Shown here in pieces: positions 2,372-57,398 of a DNA stretch of 64,000 nt. The notes below the pieces were generated by a model. The model searched no databases, was not told the DNA's origin, and saw only the letters and a program-made list of their open reading frames with translations. The first letter of the stretch is position 1. Every line of letters starts with the position of its first letter. The position numbers and the translations under genes were made by a program. The stretch is from assembly GCA_951406725.2 (NCBI GenBank), contig OX597818.1, positions 125,178,001 through 125,242,000 on the forward strand. The letters run 5' to 3'. The DNA comes from Octopus vulgaris. Taxonomy: Eukaryota.

Positions 2372-2504
2372 TATCTTTGCCTTTCATCCTTTCGGGGTCG
2401 ATGAATAAAGTACCAGTTTTGCACTGGCGTCGATATGATCGACTTAATCCGTTTATCTGTCCTTGTTTGTCCTCTCTGTGTTTAGTCCCTTGTGGGTAGT
2501 AAAG

Positions 2505-2549
<45 letters not shown>

Positions 2550-3107
2550 TACATATATATAAAAGCTGGAGGTGGAAATAGCACAGAAGTAAGTCTAAGA
2601 CATAAGAGGGAATTTAATAAAAAAAAAAATGATTTAAAAAACATATAAAAAAAAAATATTACCGGTTACGATGAATCTCATCAAATATCAGTAAATATTT
2701 ATAAAAATTTGAAGTAAAAACAGTTTATCTTCTGTCCGAGGTTTAAGAACATGTCTGGAGATTTTCGACGGCTCCATTTAAACGAACCATGCAAGCATTA
2801 GATTAATTTGAAATACACCGCCTTCTTCGGACGCATATGGCCTTAAAGGTTTTCAACATACAGGATACTCCTTTATAATTTTTAGCAATTATTTCTGTGA
2901 TAACGATCCCTATTGATCAATTTTTGTCCTTCCCCTCCCTCCATTTTATAAAAAAAATTTATTCCCCGCTTTTTTTGACCTCTTTCTTTCCCTTTACGAT
3001 CCCATTTGATCGAAAACCAAACCCCCTTTTTTTTTTACCCCCAAAAGAAAAGCTCTACCTTGTAATTTGTCCTGTCTGTGTGCAGCCCTGTGTGGCTAAT
3101 AAAGAAA

Positions 3108-3205
<98 letters not shown>

Positions 3206-3331
3206 CGTAACCTAAGATTTACGGACACACACATTTATATATTAATTTAAACATACATTAAAATATCATCGTATTTATATCGTACAATATATATTTATAC
3301 ACAGTTCTACCTCTATTTATGTAAATGTATA

Positions 3332-3729
3332 CGTGGCTGTGTGGTAAGTAGCTTGCTTATTAACCACATGGTTCCGGGTTCATTCCCACTGCGCGGCACC
3401 TTGGGCAAATGTCTTCTACTATAGCCTCGGGCCGACCAAAGCTTTCTGAGTGGATTTTATAGACGAAAACTGAAAGAAGCCCGTCGTATATATATGTATA
3501 TATATGTATGTGTGTGTATATGTTTGTGTGTCTGAATTTGTCCTCCAACATCGCTTGACAACCGATGGTGGTGTGTTTACGTCCCCGTAACTTAGCGGTT
3601 CGGCAAAAGAGACCGATAGAATAAGTACTGGGCTTACAAAAAATAAGTCCTGGGGTCGATTTGCTCGAGCATGGCCGCAGTCAAATGACTGAAACAAGTA
3701 AAAGAGTAAACGAGTAAAGAGTAAAGAGT
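3332..3729 (+). mobile_element. SINE family A
   Basis: GTGGCTGTGTGGTAAG (A-box-like), GGTTCATTCCC (B-box-like), CCTTGGGCAA (CORE-like), tail CAGTCAAATGACTG-(AAAGAGT)n. Confidence 0.9.
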
Positions 3730-3904
3730 ATATATATGTACGTGTATTCATATATGCATATCGATATATATGTAGACGCTATATATTCATACTCCATATA
3801 TATATTTCTGCGTGTGGGTATATCTGTGTGTGTTTGTTTGTGTACGCATATGTGCCTGTGAGTGTGTGCGCATTTATTTCTTCTGCGTGTCATGGCTGCG
3901 TGTA

Positions 3905-3949
<45 letters not shown>

Positions 3950-5150
3950 ATGTATGTATGTATGCAACTATGTATGTATGTATGTATGTATGTATGTATG
4001 TATGTATGTATGTATGTATGTATGTATTATCTCTCTTTCTCTCACTCTATCTCTATCTATCTATCTGATTGTACAAATTTGATTTTATATATACGCGAAC
4101 AGACTCGCATAAAGAAGTATACACACCCCGTGTGTTTGAGATCATGCATGCATACATACATGTTTACACATATACATACATACATACACACATACATACA
4201 TAAATACATACATTCACACATTCATATATACATACATGCATACATACATGCACATACATACATATATATATATACATGCATACATTCATACATACATACG
4301 TACATACATACATACATACATACATACATACATACATGCATACACACATACATACATACATACATACTACATACATACATACACACATACATACATACAT
4401 ACATACATACATACATACATACATACATACATACATACATACATACATACAAAATTGCTGTGCGCCCTGTTTGAAAATTATTTATAAACCAAACCGGGTT
4501 GAAACACTTAACATTTCGCTGTTTGATGATTGCCTTTCAAAACAGACCCTACAAAACGAGGTTAAAAAGTTATATTTGGAGATATTCGACGACGCTGGCT
4601 TCTTTATTTTTATTTTTGTTTTTGTTTTTTATACTCCGTCCATCATTCTGTTCGTTTATTCATGTTTATATACCAGTGTAAAGGAATACGCAAGGAAGGA
4701 ACACGCAGCTGTTGGGAATCCGTATGGGGCACAGCTGTTGGGAATGCAGAGTTATGGTTCTTAGGTGGTACTGTGTTGAATGCCATCCATAACGGCGCTT
4801 GCCGTGTCTTGGGTTTGAGAAACGATGTAGGGGGCGGGACACAGGTGTTTTGAGAAAACGTGTGAGGTTATGTGTGTTGCATATGTCTGTCTGCCTGTCT
4901 GTCTGTCTGTCTGCCTGTCTGTCGGTATGTATGTATGTATGTATGTATGTATGTATGTATGTATGTACACGCATGCCCACACACACACGCACACACACAC
5001 ACACACTTATATATGGATATCCTGGCTTGTGATTGTATGAGCCAGCATGAATCGGACTGAAAAGAAAAACAGAAGACTGTGTATGTACACTGGTGGACCG
5101 TGAGATGAATCAGAGTCCAACATTTTGGGTGGAGTCTGAGAGTCGGAATG

Positions 5151-7377: not shown

Positions 7378-8167
7378 CAGGGTGCGATGGGTATTTTTGT
7401 TTTTTATTTTGTCGGATACACAGTATAGTAGGGTCATTTGGGCACCGTCTGTGCGAAAAACAACACCATGACAATTCATTCCGCCAAAAATTTGGAAACG
7501 ATATGCTGAATTGCTTGACATTCGCACCGGAAGCTCTAATACGAACATTTCAGAGTGTTTGGGTGTCAATCTGAGGACATGTGCCGAGAGTGATAAAAAT
7601 CAAACATCCAGTCAGTACATGGTGTTTGGAGTGATCACTAATGATGGCGACGTTATGCCTCTATCTATCTTCTTACACGGCCTCAGATTCAACACGGAGG
7701 CCTACATCAGGTGCCTGAACGAGGTAGTGCTGTCCTGGGTCAAGAGGGTGGCTACTGGAAGACCCTGTGTCTGGCAACAGGACTCTGTACCATGCCACAC
7801 AAGCAGATCAACCCAGTCATGGCTGTCAGACAATTTTTGCGACCACATCATCTGGCCATCTAACTCCCTAGACTTCAACCCCCTTAATTATTATGCATGG
7901 AGCGCAGTTGATCGAGAGACCTACAAAACTCCTTGTAACACGAAAGATGAACAGAAGGTAAGAATTATGGCAGCGTTCACCAACTTAAACAAGTAGAGCG
8001 TCCAGTAGAGTTGCAGGGGATTCCGAAAATGTCTGGAGGCCGTGGTTAAAGCCAATGGCAATTTTATTGAATAAATTTACTCTTTCGTATTTCAAGATAT
8101 TTTAATGTAATTTTGGTAAATATATCTATTAAAATGAGATGTCAGTGTTATTTTCTTTTTGCATCCT
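7378..8167 (+). mobile_element. Tc1/mariner (DD37D/maT-like) internally deleted transposon remnant
   Basis: ORF 7511-7996 contains MVFGVIT...WQQDSVPCHTS...WPSNSLDFNPLNYYAW; ends TA-CAGGGTGC and GCATCCTA-TA. Confidence 0.75.
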
Positions 8168-9480: not shown

Positions 9481-9484
<4 letters not shown>

Positions 9485-10745
9485 CACCATACAGCACAAC
9501 GGTTCAACATCAGCCGCCTTCCAAGTAAAAAACGGGGTAAAGCAAGGCTGTGTCCTCGCTCCTACATTGTTTGGCATCTTCTTCTCACTCTTGCTGTCAC
9601 ATGCCTTTCAGACATCAGATGATGGAGTGTTTCTGCACAGTAGAAGTGACGGGAAACTGTTCAATCTCTCGCGCCTGCGTGCCAAGACCAAAATCAGAAA
9701 CGTCCTGATCAAGGAGATGTTATTTGCTGATGATGCCGCTCTGGTAACACACACAGAAGAAGCCCTCCAAAGGCTCATTAACTGTTTTGAGCAAGCATGT
9801 AACGGCTTTGGCTTAGCTATCAGCCTTAAGAAGACCAACATCATGGGCCAGGCTACATCGGACATCCCAAACATACATATTGGAGACCACAGATTACAAG
9901 AGGTGGAGCAGTTTACCTATCTGGGCTCTACCGTCACCTACAGCCTATCCCTTGACGCTGAGCTCAATATACGCATTGGCAAGGCAGCTGCTGCGATGGC
10001 CCAACTCTCCAAACGGGCTTGGGACAACAATAAGCTGACCAAGGCCACAAAAATGAAGATCTACCAGGCATGTGTACTCAGCACTCTACTGTATGGAAGC
10101 GAGACCTGGACGCTATACACACGCCAAGAGCGTCGCCTAAACATCTTTCACCTGCGCTGCCTCCGAAAAATCCTCCACATCAAATGGCAGAATCATATCC
10201 CCAACAAAGATGTCCTCAGGCAAGCAGGAATACCAAGCATGTTTGCACTCCTCACACAAAGACGTATGAGATGGCTTGGGCATGTTAGCCGTATGAAAGA
10301 TGGCAGAATCCCCAAGGACATACTCTACGGAGAGCTTGCTAGGGGTACTAGGTCTGTGGGTAGACCGATCTTACGTTACAAGGATGTTTGCAAAAGGGAT
10401 ATGAAGGCCTGCAACATCAACATTAGCGGTTGGGAGGCAGTCGCCGGCAACCGTGGAGAATGGCGACGTACAGTAAAAGAGGGTATACAGAGGAGTGACA
10501 GAAAGAGAGAGGAGAAATGGAAAGAAAGGAAGAGACATAAACAAGAGACAAAAGCACTACAACCAGCCAGGAACAGTCTTCGCTACATTTGCAGTACCTG
10601 CCAGAGGGAGTGTTTGTCCAGGATAGGACTACACAGCCACAGCAAGAAATGTAACAGGAAATAAAATATAACAGCCGGACTAGACCTAGAAAAAAAAAAA
10701 AAAAAATGCGCAACTCCATTGTCTCCCGAGACAGAAAGGATGCCA

Positions 10746-10750
<5 letters not shown>
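9481..10750 (+). mobile_element. 5'-truncated RTE-clade LINE inserted in (TA)n
   Basis: Sharp GC-richer block between two long (TA)n tracts; RT ORF followed by a short 3' UTR ending GACAGAAAGGATGCCAAACAA. Confidence 0.93.
9483..10664 (+). CDS. RTE LINE reverse transcriptase C-terminal half (5'-truncated, open frame)
   Basis: GVKQGCVLAPTLF, LFADDAAL, FTYLGS, LLYGSETW, RMRWLGHV and C-terminal CxxC..H..C motifs; no stop from 9483 to 10664. Confidence 0.9.
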
Positions 10751-16449: not shown

Positions 16450-17265
16450 AAAGAGCAATCTTGGTGAATTGTTGCTTTAAACAGAATTCTTTTCCCTGCT
16501 GCTCTAATGTATGAAATTTCTATCTTATGACTCGCTTGCAGCATAATTTTTCTTGAACACTGGCATTAGGTTTCTTGCAGCCTTTCTTGCTACGCAGAAC
16601 TCGTCGATGTTTGCGGTCCTCCAGGACGATTATTGTGACTATACTTATTTCTTTATTGCCCACAAGGGGCTAAACACAGAGGGGACAAACAAGGACAGAT
16701 AAACGGATTAAGTCGATTTCATCGACCCCAGTGCATAACTGGTACTTGATTTATCGACCCCGAAAGAATGAAAGGCAAAGTCGACCTCGGCGGAATTTGA
16801 ACTCAGAACGTAACGGCAGACGAAATACCTATTTCTTTACTACCCACAAGGGGCTAAACACAGAGGGGACAAACAAGGACAGACAAACGGATTAAGTCGA
16901 TTATATTGACCCCAGTGCGTAACAAGTACTTATTTAATCGACCACGAAAGGATGAAAGGCAAAGTCGACCTCGGCAGAATTTGAACTCAGAGCGTAGCGG
17001 CAGACGAAATACCGCTAAGCATTTCGCCCGGCGTGCTTAACGTTTCTGCCAGCTCGCCGCCTTATGGCTATTCTTGTGGTTATTCTGTTTCATCGGCTTC
17101 AAGCTTATGTCTCATTCGAGTAATGGTAAGTCCCGTTGGCGGATCTGTTTGAAACTCACCCCTAGACTGTCTTTACATTTCGACTGCATTTTCAAGCTTC
17201 CAGTAATATTTTAGGAAAAATTTCCTTTGTTCAAAACTTGGTCTGGCTCCTTTCATTATTTCTAC
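16450..17265 (-). mobile_element. Degenerate Tc1/mariner transposase N-terminus (DUF4817-like HTH), split by a SINE
   Basis: Minus strand near 17090-17256 reads MKGARPSFEQRKFFLKYYWKLENAVEM*RQSRGEFQTDPPTGLTITRMRHKLEAD. Confidence 0.6.
16644..17061 (-). mobile_element. SINE family B, dimeric
   Basis: Head GGCGGCGAGCTGGCAGAAAC plus two ~184-bp units containing GCCTTTCATCCTTTCGGGGTCGATAAA (recalled as Meta-domain-like). Confidence 0.88.
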
Positions 17266-22469: not shown

Positions 22470-23646
22470 CAGAGTCGGCTGAAAAGTTTTGAGGCTAGCC
22501 AAGATACTCTCATGGAATGTGACCAATTTTTTAAACATACTATCTCTTGCAGTCCACACACTACTTCCATCGGTGCTGCAGTGCTTGGATCCCATTGGTG
22601 AAGAAGCTTTCATCCTGTTAGTAAAAAAAGTCATCACCAACAGATGTAGCATCATCATCACTGCAGTACTGATTCCCAGTCAAGTATTTTTTCGCGTTGA
22701 GTAACATATGATAGTCAGATGAGGCCAAATCAGGAGAATAATCAGGGTGATCAACCAGTTCAGAGCCACAGTCCGGCATGGTAGTAGTTGAAATCAAAGA
22801 CTTGTATGCTAGAGTATAGTCCCAATGAAACAACACCCCTATCGTCAGTTTTCTTGATCGCTTGGTCTTGATAGCCTTTCGTACCTGCCTGAGCAAGTTG
22901 ACACAGTACTCTCCATTGGCACTTTTGAATATAGTCGTCTCAAAAACTGTAGATGAAATGATCTTGGCCTTCTTTGGAGCAGGTGAAGAAGGGTGTTTCC
23001 ACTGCATGGATTACCTCTTTGTCTCTGGCTCAAAGTGATGAACCCAATACTCATCCTGGGTTAGAAAACGTTCAAAGAAACCAGCTGGATCTGTCTCAAA
23101 CAATGTCAGATTTTCCCATGATGTGATCAGCTTGGTCGCTTTTGATCATGTGTCAGATGTGGAACCCACCGAACAGAAACCTTCGTCATATCAAGTTCAT
23201 TGTGCAGAATATTCTCAACTCTCTCGCAGGATGTGCTAATAGCATTGGCTCTTTGATTTATAGTCAATCGGCTGTCATCCATCACCATATGCTGAACACA
23301 GTTAATGCTTTCCTCAGTGGAGGGCAGCTGCAGGATGTCCAAACCTTGGGTCGTCTTTAAGACCCTTCCTCTTCAAAATCCAGCTGCATACCTTTGCACT
23401 GTTGATAAATCTGGAGCATCATTCCCTAATGTAGCAACCATGTCAGCATGAATGTCCTTGGCGTCTAAACCCGATGCCAAATTTTGTCCATTTTCAAGAA
23501 AAGTTGCTACTAGTTACTTTTGAAGTGTTCTTTGAACAGTAAAATGTCGGTTTACATGAAAAAAAACAATGAAATTGTTAATAAGAAGTGTTGAAATTAA
23601 TACATGCAAGATTTCACAGCTCTATGAACTTTTCAGCCCACCCTCG
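22470..23646 (-). mobile_element. Degenerate near-full-length mariner transposon
   Basis: Minus-strand fragments WVPHLT, MQWKHPSSPAPKKAK, HPDYSPDLASSDY; inverted GGCTGAAAAGTT termini. Confidence 0.88.
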
Positions 23647-24760: not shown

Positions 24761-25392
24761 TCCCTCGATTATAAGACGCTTTCTTTTCCCATGGCTCTTA
24801 CCATTTATTTTCTTTCTGAAACTAAAGCATATTTTGTTTTGATAAACAACATCGCAGCCGTGGCTATGTTGTTAAAAAGCTTGCTTCCCAACAATATGGT
24901 TTAGGGTTCAGTGCCACCATGCGGCACCTTGGAGAAATATCCTCAAACATACATTCAGGCTGACCAAAGCCTTCAGAGTGCATTTGGTCTACAAATGTGT
25001 GCGTGTGTGTGTGTGTGTGTGTATTTATGTGTGCACGCGCATATATGTGTATGTATGTGAGGCGACTTCCCACCCGGACTTTTACTCCGGATGGGATCCT
25101 CTTAGGTGAACCCATGGTCATTCGTGACCGACGAAGTCAAGATATATCTATGAATATACGCGTGTCTTTGTATTTGTCGCCAGCCCACTGCTTGACAACG
25201 GGGGTTGGTTTCTTTATGCCAGCATAAGCTAGCTATTCGGCAAAAGGTACCGATGAAATTAATGCCATGTAAGAACTGAGATCGACTCGGTCGACTAAAA
25301 CCTTCAACGCAATGCATCAGTATGGCCGCAAATTTAATGACAGAAACAAGTATAAGGTAAAAAGTAATAAATGAATAAAAGCTATGTAAATA

Positions 25393-25555
25393 GGCGCAGG
25401 GGTGACTGAGTGGTAAGAAGATTGCTTCCCAACCACATGGTTCCGGGTTCAGTCCCACTGCGTGACACCTTGGGCAAGTGTCTTCTACTATAGCCTTGGG
25501 CCGACCAAAGTCTTCTAACTGGATTTGGTGGACGGAAACTGAAAGAAGCCCGTCG

Positions 25556-25598
<43 letters not shown>

Positions 25599-25616
25599 AT
25601 ATGTGAGTGTGTGTGT

Positions 25617-25653
<37 letters not shown>

Positions 25654-26030
25654 TTTGAGTCTGTGTTTGTCCCACCACCATCGCTTGATAGTCGATGTTG
25701 GTGTGTTTACGTCCCCGTAATATAGTGGTTCGGCAAAAGATACCGATAGAAAAAGTACTAGGCTTACAAAGAACAAGTCCTAGGGTCGTTTTGTTCGACT
25801 AAAGGGTGTGCTTCGAAAGTTTTAAAAATACAACTAAAATATTGCTTACGGCCATATCAGGTTGAAAGCACCAGTTCTCGTCCGATCACCGAAGTTAAGC
25901 AACGTGGAGCCTAGTTAGTACTTAGATGGGTGACCACTTGGGAAACCTAGGTGCTGTAAGCGTCACACATTTTGTAAAGGCAGTGCTCCAGCATGGCCGC
26001 TGTCAAATGACTGAAACAAGTAAAAGTAAA
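25393..26030 (+). mobile_element. SINE family A interrupted by a 5S rDNA insert
   Basis: Family A sequence runs to ...TTCGACTAAAGG, is interrupted for 169 bp, and resumes TAAAGGCAGTGCTCCAGCATGG. Confidence 0.88.
25844..25963 (+). rRNA. 5S rRNA: 5S rRNA gene copy (probably a dispersed pseudogene)
   Basis: GCTTACGGCCATA...TCTCGTCCGATCACCGAAGTTAAGCAACG...TTAGTACTTAGATGGGTGACC...GGTGCTGTAAGC; ends pair (GCTTACGGC/GCTGTAAGC); box A and box C present; T4 at 25970-25973. Confidence 0.92.
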
Positions 26031-26512
26031 ATTTTTACTAGCTAACAATTCCACATCTTATTTACCTATAAGCATACTTGTAAATCAAGCAAATAAAATT
26101 GCTACTTTGGTCGCATGATATGGATACAGTGATATATTGTATTTATAATTACCTTCTTTCTTCTTCCGTTTAGTATCAGGTTTTGGTTCTGAACGTCTCT
26201 CTTCTCTCCGTCAGCTCTTGCTTCTCATTATTCAATCGATTGAAACTAATTGTGAAACAGTAACTGAAATTATATATGCGTGGCGACACTTCATCCATCC
26301 TCATGAAATTAATTAAATCAATTAACCATATTAAATTATAGTATTTAATTGACATGGTTATTCGAACTTACCACCAAGTGCATAATACCCGCGCTCTGAG
26401 AAGGGAGTGATTTATGAGAAGTGCTTAACATAAATTACCCCCTTATTTCTCATTGGTTGGATATGTACATTTTGTAAATGTCACTATAGAATGTATTAGT
26501 TTATTCCAAGCA

Positions 26513-26916
26513 GGCGCAGGAGTGGCTGTGTGGTAAGTAGCTTGCTAACCAACCACATGGTTCCGGTTTCAGTCCGACTGCGTGGCATCTTGGGCAAGTG
26601 TCTTCCGTTATAGCCCCGGGCCGACCAATGCCTTGTGAGTGGATTTGGTAGACGGAAACTGAAAGAAGCCTGTCGTATATATCTATATATATGTGTGTGT
26701 GTGTGTGTTTGTGTGTCTGTGTTTGTCCCCCTAGCATTACTTGACAACCGATGCTGGTGTGTTTACGTCCCCGTCACTTAGCGGTTCGGCAAAGAGACCG
26801 ATAAAATAAGTACTGGGCTTACAAAGAATAAGTCCCGGGGTCGATTTGCTCGACTAAAGGCGGTGCTCCCGCATGGCCGCAGTCAAATGACTGAAACAAG
26901 TAAAAGAGTAAAAGAG
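26513..26916 (+). mobile_element. SINE family A, full length
   Basis: GGCGCAGGAGTGGCTGTGTGG head through the AAAAGAG tail. Confidence 0.92.
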
Positions 26917-36106: not shown

Positions 36107-36522
36107 GGCGGCGAGTTGGCAGAAACGTTAGCACGCCGGGCGAAATGCTTAGCGGTATTTCGTCTGCCGTTACGTTCTGAGTTCAAACTCCGCCGAGGTC
36201 GACTTTGCCTTTCATCCTTTCGGGGTCGATAAATTAAGTACGAGTTACGCACTGGGGTCGATGTAATCAACTTAATCCGTTTGTTTGTCCTTGTTCGTCC
36301 CCTCTGTGTTTAGCCCCTTGTGGGTAGTAAAGAAATAGGTATTTCGTCTGCCGCTACGTTCTGAGTTCAAATTCCGCCGAGGTTGACTTTGCCTTTCATC
36401 CTTTCGGGGTCGATTAAATAAGTACCAGTTACGCACTGGGGTCGATATTATCAACTTATTCCGTTTGTCTGTCCTTGTTTGTCCTCTCTGTGTTTAGCTC
36501 CTTGTGGGCAATAAAGAAATAA
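36107..36522 (+). mobile_element. SINE family B, dimeric
   Basis: Head plus units starting at 36154 and 36338 (184-bp period). Confidence 0.92.
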
Positions 36523-39929: not shown

Positions 39930-40029
39930 NNNNNNNNNNNNNNNNNNNNNNNNNNNNNNNNNNNNNNNNNNNNNNNNNNNNNNNNNNNNNNNNNNNNNNN
40001 NNNNNNNNNNNNNNNNNNNNNNNNNNNNN
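39930..40029. other. Assembly gap (100 N)
   Basis: Run of N. Confidence 1.
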
Positions 40030-44322: not shown

Positions 44323-45469
44323 TATATGCGTACATGCATACATACACAGTTAATGTCAGAATTCCAGTGAAACAGTTCTGTTCGTAGGTGGGAATCGGGT
44401 TTCTTTTTTTATCGGTGAGAAATTTTAAAAATAAAACTAGAACATAAGATTCACACACATACAGGCAGATACACACGCACGCACGCACACACACACATAT
44501 ACACACACACTCACATACACACACACACACAGCCAGAGTATACGCACATATTAGTGTGTTTACACTTCGATATTTGTGTGTGTGTGTAGGAGAGAAAAAG
44601 AAGGAGGAATTATTATTTTCGCTGACATTTAACCGAAATGAATGATTGTCTTATAATAAATCTTTCTTCACCATCGCTGTTAGGACTACGAAGGCTAACC
44701 ATTATCCCCACCACTACCATTAGCATCGACGACACCCCAATCAGTGGTTCCATCGCTATCACAACCAACGCCAACAGCACCATCATCAGCAGCAGCACCA
44801 CCATCACAAGCAGCAACACCTTCATTAGCACTTCCAATATTGTTAGCATCACAACGACTCCATAACTAACATTTCATTCACCACCAATTTTACCACAAGA
44901 TGTCGGTGCGTGGTAGGTTTGTTTGATTTGATACAACACCCAAATCTCTCACACATTTTACGCTACCGTTCAGAAAGAATAAAAGCCATATCGTTGTGGA
45001 ATGTATTCTTAGGTAAACAAAAATACTGGCAGGTCATGGTTGGAACCAGAGCCTATAAGTCTGAGAAACAGCCAGCACATTTGCACCAGTGTGCTGAGAA
45101 CCAAGGAAGGGCACGTGACTTAAAATCTCGCAAGTGTGACTTTGCTCGCCAAATAGACTTTACTTGGTGGTCAATGAAAATTAAAACCGGTCATTTTTAC
45201 CAATATTTCGTTGAATTTTCATTAAAGATTTGTATAAAAATGACAATATTACCGCAAGCTTATATATCAGAATCGTTAGCACGCCAGACAAAATGATTAG
45301 CTGCATGTCGTCCGTCTGCACGCTCTGAATTCAAATTCCACCGAGGTCGACTTTGCCTTTCATCCTTTCGAGATCGATAAAATAAGTGCCAGCTGAGTAT
45401 TGGGCTCGATCTAATCGACTATCCTCCTCTGTCAAATTTCAGGCCTTATGCCTGAAATGGATTATTACA

Positions 45470-49232: not shown

Positions 49233-49394
49233 GGCGCAGGAGTGGCTGTGTGGTAAGTAGCTTGTTTACCAACCACATGGTTCCGGGTTCAGTCCCACTG
49301 CGTGGCACCTTGGGCAAGTGTCTTCTACTATAGCCTCGGGCCGACCAAAGCCTTGTGGGTGGATTTGGTAGACGGAAACTGAAAGAAGCCCGTC

Positions 49395-49451
<57 letters not shown>

Positions 49452-49671
49452 TGTGTGTGTTTGTGTGTGTGTGTTTGTCCCCCTAGCATTGCTTGACAAC
49501 CGATGCTGGTGTGTTTACGTCCCTGTTACTTAGCGGTTCGGCAAAAGAGACCGATAGAATAAGTACTAGGCTTACAAAAGAATAAGTCCCGGGGTCGAGT
49601 TGCTCGATTAAAGGCGGTGCTCCAGCATGGCCGCAGTTAAATGACTGAAACAAGTAAAAGAGAGTAAAAGA
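49233..49671 (+). mobile_element. SINE family A, full length
   Basis: Complete head to tail. Confidence 0.92.
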
Positions 49672-54370: not shown

Positions 54371-55065
54371 GGCGGCGAGCTGGCAGAAACGTTAGCACGC
54401 CGGGCGAAATGCTTTGCGGTAGTTCGTACCCCGTTACGTTGTGAGTTCAAATTCCGCCAAGGTCGACTTTGCCTTTCATCCTTTCGGGGTCGATAAATCA
54501 AGTACCAGTTACGCACTGGGGTCGATATAATCGACTTAACCCCTTTGTCTGTCCTTGTTTATCCCCTCTGTGTTTAGCCCCTTGTGAGTAATAAAGAAAT
54601 ATGTATTTCGTCTGCCGCTACGTTCTGAGTTCAAATTCCGCCGAGGTCGACTTTGCCTTTCATCCTTTCGGGGTCGATAAATCAAGTACCAGTTACGCAC
54701 TGGGGTCGATGTAATCGACTTTATCCGTTTGTGTCGTTGTTTGTCCTCTCTGTGTTTAGCGACTTGTGGGTAGTAAAGAAATGGGGTCGATTAAATAAGT
54801 ACCAGTTACGCACTGGGGTCGATATAATCGACCTAATTCATTTGTCTGTCCTTGTTTGTCCCTTCTGTGTGTAGCCCCTTGTGGCTAGTAAAGAAATATG
54901 TATTTCGTCTGTCGTTACGTTCTGAGTTCAAATTCCGCCGAGGTCGACTTCGCCTTTCATCTTTTCGGAGTCGATTAAATAAGTACCAGTTACGCACTGG
55001 GGTCGATATAATCGACTTAATCCGTTTGTCTGTCCTTGTTTGTCCTCTCCGTGTGTAGCCCCTTG
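54371..55065 (+). mobile_element. SINE family B tandem multimer (~4 units)
   Basis: One head, then units at ~54418, ~54603, ~54783 (partial) and ~54900. Confidence 0.9.
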
Positions 55066-55261
55066 TTCTTTAGATATGCATTTTTATGAGAATTTTCATT
55101 TCCTTTTCTTGTATTCTTTCTTTCTGTCTCTTTAAGTTTTTCCTTTCATTCATTTATTCTTCTCCTTATCTATTCTTTTACTTTCTTTCTTTCTTTTTTC
55201 CTTCCTCTCCAGCATTCTTTTAACCATTTACTCTTTCAATATTCCTCTTTTTCAGTTTTAG

Positions 55262-55898: not shown

Positions 55899-56144
55899 TC
55901 TATCTATCTATCTCTCTCTTTCGCTTTCTCTTTATCTATCTCTCTATCTTTTCCTCTTTTTATCAAATCGCTTTTGTAATAACGCTTTCATTGTTATCGT
56001 TTCAGTGGCGATGGCCTGGTTATGTGTTCGTGCTCTACGAGCAACAACCTCACATTGATCATACTCAGTACCATTACAGCTATCAACAAGAACCACCGCA
56101 ACAGCAACAGTTTCCTCTACAAGCACTACCTACCCCACGCCCAC

Positions 56145-57398
56145 CGTCCTATTGTCACAGCTTACTTCTATTGGCGGCGCCAAATTCGCAAACTGAGCGC
56201 TTCTTGGTCGCCATCTTCTAAATTCACGTCTTTGTCGACGTTAATGGCAGCTTCAAGCCCGAATCTGCATACAACAAGCTCCGCCTTCATTTTAGCCACG
56301 ACAGCAACGCCAAGACGAAACAAGGATACGGAGACGAGCAAACAAAAGAGAAAACCTCAGGAAATAGCGATGACGCTGCAACAGCAGAAACTTCACCGTC
56401 AGCACCAGCGTCCCCGTCATCAGCTTCATCCACATCAGCGTCCTCCTCCGCCCCCGCCACCACCACCACCACCTCCTCCTCATCCCCATCATGATTATTA
56501 TCTCTACGAGCAACAACCTCACATCGATCATACTCAGTATCATTACAGTTATCAACAAGAACCACCGCAACAGCAACAGTTTCCTCTACAAGCACTACCT
56601 ACCCCACGCCCACCGTCCTCAACTCCCCCTCCGCCACCGTCCCCTCTTCCATCTCCACCGCCAAGTCCACCACCGTCATCAACACCTTCGCTTTTATCGT
56701 CACCTCCGCCGCTGCCGCCGTTCGACAAGGGCGACTGTACCAGCAGAACAGCGTCATCAATGGTGACCCATAATTTCAATAGCAACACCAATGTTTCTTC
56801 AGAAAGAACTCCTCAGAACAGTAACGATTGGTATCAGAAACTGACAAACACCAGCTTGACGCTTGGAGAACGAAACGAAGAATCCGTTTCATTTTCAGAT
56901 CCGGATTTTACATTCAAGCGCTCTTCGACCCGCTGCTATTTTCAGCTTTGTTGGTTACTGTACGAAACCTTGTTTGTTTCGGCCATATCGGTGGGTTCAA
57001 TCTATCTCATCGAACTTCTACCGCAGCTTAGACAGCAACCAGAACGCCGCACGGTGTCATTTGCCGATATCGGTGTGAATTGCATCAATTCTTTATTGAT
57101 ATTCTCCGAAGTCTTCATATGTGCTTACCCAGTTCGCCTTTTGCATGTAATTTATCCGATAATTTATGCCATTTCTTATATTGTATTTAGTTTAGCTTAT
57201 TGGTCTTATGATACTGAAGCAAACGTCATCTATCCCAGCATTCTAAATTGGAACAATCCCGGCTTGACCGCAGCTCAAATTGTCTTGCTTGTGTTCGTTG
57301 TTATTCCGCTGTTGAATGTAGTGCATTTCGGTCTTTATCACTTGCGGTTGTTCATTTACAGACAGATATATATGGAAGATTACTTATTTATCTTATAA
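56145..57398 (+). CDS. rost: Rolling stone-like multi-pass membrane protein, terminal exon (probable acceptor at 56005; 5' part disrupted)
   Basis: C-terminus FQLCWLLYET...GVNCINSLLIFSEVFICAYPVRLLHVIYPIIYAISYIVFSLAYW...IYPSILNWNNPG resembles the rolling stone family (recalled); TTTCAG|WRWPGYVFVLY upstream; Pro/Gln/His-rich loop. Confidence 0.72.
   Translation, partial: RPIVTAYFYWRRQIRKLSASWSPSSKFTSLSTLMAASSPNLHTTSSAFILATTATPRRNKDTETSKQKRKPQEIAMTLQQQKLHRQHQRPRHQLHPHQRPPPPPPPPPPPPPHPHHDYYLYEQQPHIDHTQYHYSYQQEPPQQQQFPLQALPTPRPPSSTPPPPPSPLPSPPPSPPPSSTPSLLSSPPPLPPFDKGDCTSRTASSMVTHNFNSNTNVSSERTPQNSNDWYQKLTNTSLTLGERNEESVSFSDPDFTFKRSSTRCYFQLCWLLYETLFVSAISVGSIYLIELLPQLRQQPERRTVSFADIGVNCINSLLIFSEVFICAYPVRLLHVIYPIIYAISYIVFSLAYWSYDTEANVIYPSILNWNNPGLTAAQIVLLVFVVIPLLNVVHFGLYHLRLFIYRQIYMEDYLFIL

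Follow-up and report, generated by a model that had tools for sequence, protein, structure and literature searches.

Results

Organization of the locus

The window, as we call the whole 64,000-nucleotide stretch of Octopus vulgaris DNA that was analysed, is A+T-rich and holds many microsatellites and SINEs. Nested in the tail of one of these, a tRNA-derived SINE of family A, is a complete 5S rRNA copy (Table 1). The insert measures 169 bp (25806-25974), lies between two copies of TAAAGG and consists of a leader, the 5S sequence and a trailer. A first-pass annotation of the same DNA had read this layout and its coordinates correctly, and likewise the 3' end, which stops 1 nt beyond a T4 run (25970-25973).

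Table 1. The 5S insert, its host SINE and the target site (positions in the window)
Feature	Position	Strand	Remarks
tRNA-derived SINE, family A, host of the insert	25393-26031	+	interrupted by the insert
A-box-like promoter element of the host SINE	25403-25413
B-box-like promoter element of the host SINE	25446-25456
Internal (TA)/(TG) microsatellite of the host SINE	25556-25652
T4 run at P-11 to P-8 before the duplication	25789-25792	+	RTE-type target signature; T3 in siblings
Left target duplication copy, TAAAGG	25800-25805	+	perfect 6 bp; imperfect 13 bp reaching 25812
Leader, 38 bp	25806-25843	+	T4 at 25820-25823; TATA-like motif at -22 only
Full-length eukaryote-type 5S rRNA sequence	25844-25962	+	A box, intermediate element, C box
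Trailer, 12 bp	25963-25974	+	T4 at +127 to +130 (25970-25973), then one G
Right target duplication copy, TAAAGG	25975-25980	+	imperfect 13 bp reaching 25987
SINE tail beyond the insert, with the first bases of the flank	25981-26036	+	ends in T5 (26032-26036)

None of the 13 sibling segments of the host SINE aligned within the 64-kb window carries the insert, which answers a question raised in the first-pass annotation about other family A SINEs. Eight of the 13 present an empty site, with the hexamer occurring once and with at most one change; two are deleted across the site, and three are older variants. In the alignment with the siblings, the extra sequence of the host amounts to the insert and one hexamer, no more; a given hexamer would turn up at a fixed position with a probability of 3e-4. 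Searching the 64-kb window with blastn returned no second copy, the next match being 26 A+T-rich bases at E 0.008. The fold of the whole insert was equalled in stability by 65 of 200 shuffles, indicating no special structure. Exact searches for the leader/5S junction gave 0 matches in 185,579 prokaryote genomes, where none were expected, and the insert matched nothing among plasmids and phages, collections not expected to hold a eukaryotic 5S.

The host SINE departs from the sibling majority at 33 of 339 sites (9.7%; siblings, 3.2-18.2%), and its A box lacks a G that the siblings keep. T4 runs at 25789, 25820 and 25970 separate SINE head, 5S and tail from one another; together with the altered A box, they make a joint transcript of both promoters unlikely. 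The earlier remark that two Pol III promoter types occupy one unit is thus accurate for the DNA, where both lie in a single stretch, but improbable for a transcript. Family A sequence, counted without its microsatellites, takes up at least 9% of the window (5,846 of 64,000 bases), so the landing of a 5S in such a SINE needs no targeting. An older, more diverged family A copy (24853-25390) lies directly upstream of the host in the same orientation. The ends of family A elements, for example 26513-26907 and 49233-49661, consist of short GTAAAAGA-type repeats. Unlike the 5S insert, family A elements had no convincing target duplications in 14 pairs, and they may use a different LINE than the insert did. 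Another SINE family forms head-to-tail dimers at 16641-17013, 36154-36521 and 54486-55066, with periods of 184, 184 and 297.

Several other features of the window were recorded. The frame at 55983-57398 (+) ends in a rolling stone (Rost, PF21534) domain, contains a 118-bp internal duplication (56033-56150 and 56502-56619) and includes a proline-rich stretch missing from a 99% identical database protein (P0001). Two frames, 7472-7996 (+) and 22618-23010 (-), look by eye like Tc1/mariner transposase fragments, with no Pfam match at E 0.001.

Structure and decay of the 5S copy

The 5S sequence aligned with positions 1-120 of the Rfam model at 107.7 bits (E 1e-22), and 5S rRNA was the sole Rfam family above threshold in the 64-kb window. 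For comparison, an exact 30-nt pattern from gene positions 33-62 retrieved 14 loci in six MAG contigs; these references are identical over 33-62 by construction, and they come from unrelated taxa. They are eukaryote-type 5S genes, mostly in tandem repeats, in GTDB bins and evidently represent eukaryotic contamination of those bins (L001-L014). The nine of the 14 loci that were scanned gave 10 full-length matches, with scores of 113.6-120.3 bits, and one that was cut off.

Aligning the window copy with eight reference genes, on a structure drawn up after the eukaryotic 5S fold, we found that 98.2% of the alignment cells pair and that seven pairs vary in both members (0 of 500 shuffles). Three of 37 pairs are broken in the window copy: 17:61 and 30:47 are intact in all eight references, and 72:103 is unpaired in two of the eight as well. 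The change at position 30, G30A, is of the CpG type. Compensated changes at 2:117, 3:116, 69:106 and 81:95 occur in the window copy alone, and those at 70:105 and 14:65 are common to it and some references; the former four were likely inherited from a functional source, judging from the alignment. The A81-U95 pair is also present in Drosophila 5S. Judged against these references, decay of the copy is probably mild. The first-pass annotation had argued for decay from helix breaks, among them the one at 17:61; that break is real, but the decay seems only mild, the differences outside the three broken pairs being compensated. The copy has probably lost its function. Three broken pairs fit roughly 2-12% divergence, a range that gives no dating of the insert relative to its host.

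The T4 run starts at +127 in the window copy instead of at +118/+119 as in all 10 reference rows, so that a 3'-extended precursor must be assumed for the source species. The trailer is likely the 3' end of such a precursor transcript, which hints at 5S precursors with a 3' trailer in a cephalopod; offset 5S terminators are described elsewhere (PMC8789306). The extra G past T4, the last base of the insert, is left without explanation. Derivation of the T4 terminator from the TTTTG of the host's left flank was rejected (2456-4980 of 20,000, not significant), and a match of the trailer to 26467-26478 is a chance one, 26 of 200 shuffles being as good.

Origin of the leader

The leader is 76% A+T. 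A TATA-like motif lies at -31 to -27 in six of nine distinct reference 5S upstream regions, and its position in mollusc 5S genes is given as about -28 (PMC6204057); the window leader has one at -22 only, and three of the nine references also lack it at the usual position. Scored against the leader, the nine reference upstream regions reached 6.75-15 and the host's own downstream flank 29.25. The comparison with the flank was prompted by a MAFFT alignment that placed the leader on the SINE tail, and all leader-flank tests are hence post hoc. Using start-anchored alignment with cheap long gaps in eight settings, we found the leader to be colinear with the flank (25981-26035), with 27 of 38 bases identical and gaps of 15 and 2. 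Out of 4000 trials each, this match was equalled in 1-29 with shuffled bases, in 11-85 with shuffled dinucleotides and in 10-67 with random flanks, giving a post hoc p of about 0.0003-0.02 over the eight settings. The identity of 71% is low for direct templating. Among 16 family tails the host's own flank was the best, sibling tails scoring up to 25.5. The last 18 leader bases match the host flank at 14 of 18, a level reached at 10 of 127,964 positions, these two included. In an exact-word mosaic analysis of 32 settings, 5-mers taken from the same strand of the flanks were enriched and accounted for 20-35 of the 38 leader bases. Of 10,000 shuffles each, 8-383 attained this coverage when bases were shuffled and 67-917 when dinucleotides were, as did 59-478 of 5000 random sites.

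Other treatments gave ordinary results. Exact 6- and 7-mers from the flanks showed no enrichment in the same mosaic analysis, and stiffer gaps, transition-tolerant scoring and a 50-nt tail left the leader match not significant (398-550 of 5000 shuffles). Within ±300 bp the best local match to the leader was unexceptional (270 of 1000). The idea that the leader is a decayed whole SINE tail was rejected beyond base 9 with stiff gaps (from base 10, 3261 of 5000). The best leader match elsewhere in the window, 22 of 26 bases at 44420-44445, is A+T-rich and outside the repeat families, with 4 of 200 shuffles as good; as for a known small RNA such as the U6 5' end, 25380-26100 yielded no convincing Rfam match.

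Two separate signals, one at either end of the leader, indicate the same nearby template in the right order; as the tests are post hoc, this amounts to moderate evidence for a local origin. The leader is thus likely filler at the 5' junction, copied in part from the downstream flank, and not a 5S upstream region. Published precedents exist: extra 5' nucleotides are reported for 12.4% of full-length Alu insertions (PMC2912911) and for about half of zebrafish ZfL2-2 insertions, where they are largely copied from the flank (PMC4245944). The leader had been taken at first for upstream flank requiring DNA-level movement or a longer transcript. Given its resemblance to the host flank and the commonness of LINE 5' extras, this interpretation is not upheld, and if the leader is filler, sequence in front of the 5S is no longer a reason to exclude a retrocopy.

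Target duplication and putative nick site

The segments 25800-25812 and 25975-25987 are identical at 11 of 13 positions (12 of 15 when extended to 15 bp). After the perfect 6 bp come two adjacent mismatches, and then the match resumes; blastn and repeat finding recovered the 13-bp form independently. Anchored extension, with GTGCT after both hexamers, was equalled in 72-569 of 20,000 nulls. The target duplication may therefore be an imperfect 13 bp instead of 6 bp, so that neither the 6-bp duplication nor the 38-bp length of the leader, as first annotated, is certain, although the hexamer itself is perfect. Most 5-6 bp duplications at full-length Alu copies are reported to extend if a substitution is allowed, and 14 of 69 perfect 6-bp duplications around human full-length Alu remain 6 bp with one substitution permitted (Kojima 2010, PMC2912911). 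That rule, as given there, concerns one mismatch; here two adjacent ones are involved.

At the target, the duplication begins with T and a T4 run occupies P-11 to P-8. A duplication that starts with T and lies some ten bases past a T stretch is the pattern described for RTE-mobilised, T-ending elements, with a duplication length quoted as 7-15 bp (PMC6007223), a range that the perfect 6 bp narrowly misses. The background of this signature is 1413 of 127,748 window positions (1.1%), or 4800 (3.8%) if T3 is accepted. T4 was present in none of the seven sibling empty sites inspected, which makes the fourth T private to the host; it could have arisen after insertion. The window yielded no second clean nested insertion for calibrating the signature, and 14 pairs of family A SINEs, examined for the same use, showed no convincing duplications.

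Discussion

Colinearity with the 5S gene from +1 and a duplication with a known empty site indicate that the window 5S is probably a retropseudogene with an RTE-type target. We rate as a better-than-even proposition that it is a one-off LINE-made copy of a Pol III precursor, with filler at the 5' junction, and now mildly decayed. The resident SINE would have been nicked in its 3' part, ten bases downstream of the T run, by a LINE protein that is probably of the RTE clade. Reverse transcription would then have begun where a pre-5S RNA intermediate ends in oligo-U and proceeded to +1, so that the copied RNA would span +1 to about +131, as for a Pol III product. The 3' end, 1 nt beyond T4, fits a Pol III transcript; a copy made from DNA or a long RNA would stop there only by coincidence. 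Finally, the 5' joint would have been repaired by piecemeal synthesis on the target, leaving about 30-38 filler bases partly drawn from neighboring DNA, in what may be the sole such copy in the genome. The ordinary pseudogene with filler DNA, against which the first-pass annotation had set its own proposal, is the more likely case.

An RTE-like reverse transcriptase frame (9483-10664; Pfam RVT_1) is present within the window, and its best match is an Octopus bimaculoides protein at 75% identity. We take it to belong to the RTE clade from a match named after F52C9.6 and from the look of its 3' end. The element (9483-10750, +) is 5'-truncated, has a 393-codon stop-free frame and is inserted in a (TA)n tract. 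No RTE-derived 3' tail was recognized, this element having no match in the insert or in the host tail.

The closest published parallels are the 5S retropseudogenes, tailless ones included (Noll et al. 2015, PMC5322556), which resemble the window copy in being small-RNA copies with a target duplication and no poly(A), made by a LINE acting in trans. As described there, however, tailless retropseudogenes are 3'-truncated at loops, made by L1 and found in therians, whereas the window copy runs full length to the terminator and has a 5' addition. RTE-mobilised SINEs (Nishiyama and Ohshima 2018, PMC6007223) share the T-starting duplication about ten bases below a T stretch and a T-rich template end; those covered in that account are from plants, a lizard and mammals, not molluscs, and the window insert differs by lacking an RTE tail and by a perfect duplication of 6 bp. 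LINE insertions with 5' extras (Yamaguchi et al. 2014, PMC4245944; Kojima 2010, PMC2912911) likewise carry flank-derived bases at the joint, but the window leader, at 30-38 bases, has only 71% colinear identity to its flank. No description of this 5S-in-SINE arrangement in cephalopods was found in the literature searched, which excluded most subscription journals and repeat libraries.

An unlikely alternative, still one to be taken seriously, is a one-off copy of a real 5S locus together with its true upstream spacer, joined at its 5' end through short microhomology. Its template would be an RNA made by Pol III or Pol II reading through a 5S repeat, or else DNA, possibly circular rDNA, that served in break repair; circular 5S rDNA is described in other animals (PMC3225859). 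Both ends of the insert exceed the mature RNA, the 3' end lying one base beyond T4, the leader is A+T-rich, and the GTGCT after both hexamers (72-569 of 20,000) fits a microhomology joint. Nevertheless, the usual TATA-like position is empty in the leader, both leader ends resemble the local flank, and a DNA template predicts neither the terminator end nor the nick signature. An octopus or other cephalopod 5S spacer sequence was not found in the literature searched.

The first-pass annotation had also suggested a 5S-derived mobile family, which the single copy in the window and the absence of transposon-type ends speak against. We regard as very unlikely a dispersed 5S-bearing family whose ends are fixed, whether of the SINE3, Cassandra/Ajax or DNA-transposon type. 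The compact 169-bp unit, the clean duplication and the intact-looking internal promoter would suit such a family, and an Octopus vulgaris annotation lists one recently active "SINE 5S" family with seven insertions and 42,242 bp (PMC13282606, Table 1). At about 6 kb per insertion, however, that entry looks array-like rather than like a short element. Terminal inverted repeats are absent from the insert (3 of 15 matches; none among 20 inverted pairs), TG..CA sub-elements with a 4-6 bp duplication numbered 0 of 6, and Helitron ends (TC..CTRR) are missing while a duplication is present. With no second copy of the insert in 64 kb, there is no pair of LTRs around a primer-binding site and polypurine tract, and only 12 bp follow the 5S within the duplication, with no LINE-like tail inside the insert. 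SINEBase reserves the term SINE for at least 100 interspersed copies and sets RNA pseudogenes apart by copy number and extra modules (PMC3531059).

Known 5S-bearing repeats agree with the locus in part. SINE3 and other 5S-headed SINEs, Cassandra and Ajax have a 5S internal promoter in an interspersed repeat (Kojima 2024, PMC10886601), and the window stretch from the 5S to the SINE end shares the head-plus-tail order of SINE3. Unlike the Cassandra and Ajax TRIMs as described in that work, the locus lacks paired LTRs, a primer-binding site and a duplication of 5 bp, and it retains a whole 5S with compensated pairs, while Ajax keeps the promoter part alone. It further departs from SINE3 and the TRIMs in its complete 5S, the T4 between 5S and tail and the lack of copies in 64 kb. 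Turtle NOR-5S genes (PMC8789306) are similarly relocated, with an offset terminator and an upstream WTAAA motif that is absent or unclear, but they are reported as conserved and expressed, and the window copy is nested in a SINE with helix-breaking changes.

The chance is remote that the insert is a chimeric retrocopy, in which a reverse transcriptase jumped from the 5S 5' end to the 3' end of another RNA, for example a diverged family A SINE transcript, that then annealed to the homologous target. This would account for a leader colinear with a SINE tail at merely 71% identity and for the fairly high scores of sibling tails (up to 25.5 vs 29.25), and 5S/LINE chimeras are described in mammals (10.1101/2025.02.02.635956); nevertheless, the host flank outscores 15 of 15 other tails, and a core tail motif conserved in the siblings is missing from the leader. 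An assembly chimera has next to no probability: despite the repeat-rich genome and a 100-N scaffold gap at 39930-40029, that gap is 14 kb distant, removal of the insert and one hexamer restores the exact sibling structure, and a mis-join predicts neither a duplicated target nor a nick signature.

Beyond the one-off retropseudogene that we favor, it is quite unlikely that we see here a newborn SINE3 or a member of an unreported dispersed octopus 5S family. A 5S with an intact-looking promoter stands 12 bp upstream of the 3' tail of a SINE and shares its orientation; were one T4 read through, a 193-nt 5S-plus-tail RNA (25844-26036) would result, which the partner LINE of the SINE could copy. The SINE tail, which may be LINE-derived, has no match to the RTE-like element of the window. 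If daughter 5S-plus-tail copies exist, they would show that a 5S-headed SINE can arise anew at the DNA level; the route usually proposed is a template switch (PMC4824008). As an ordinary pseudogene, the insert would have little significance of its own, and its value would lie in being nested cleanly at a site whose empty form is known, a hint that the target signature of RTE elements also applies in a cephalopod.
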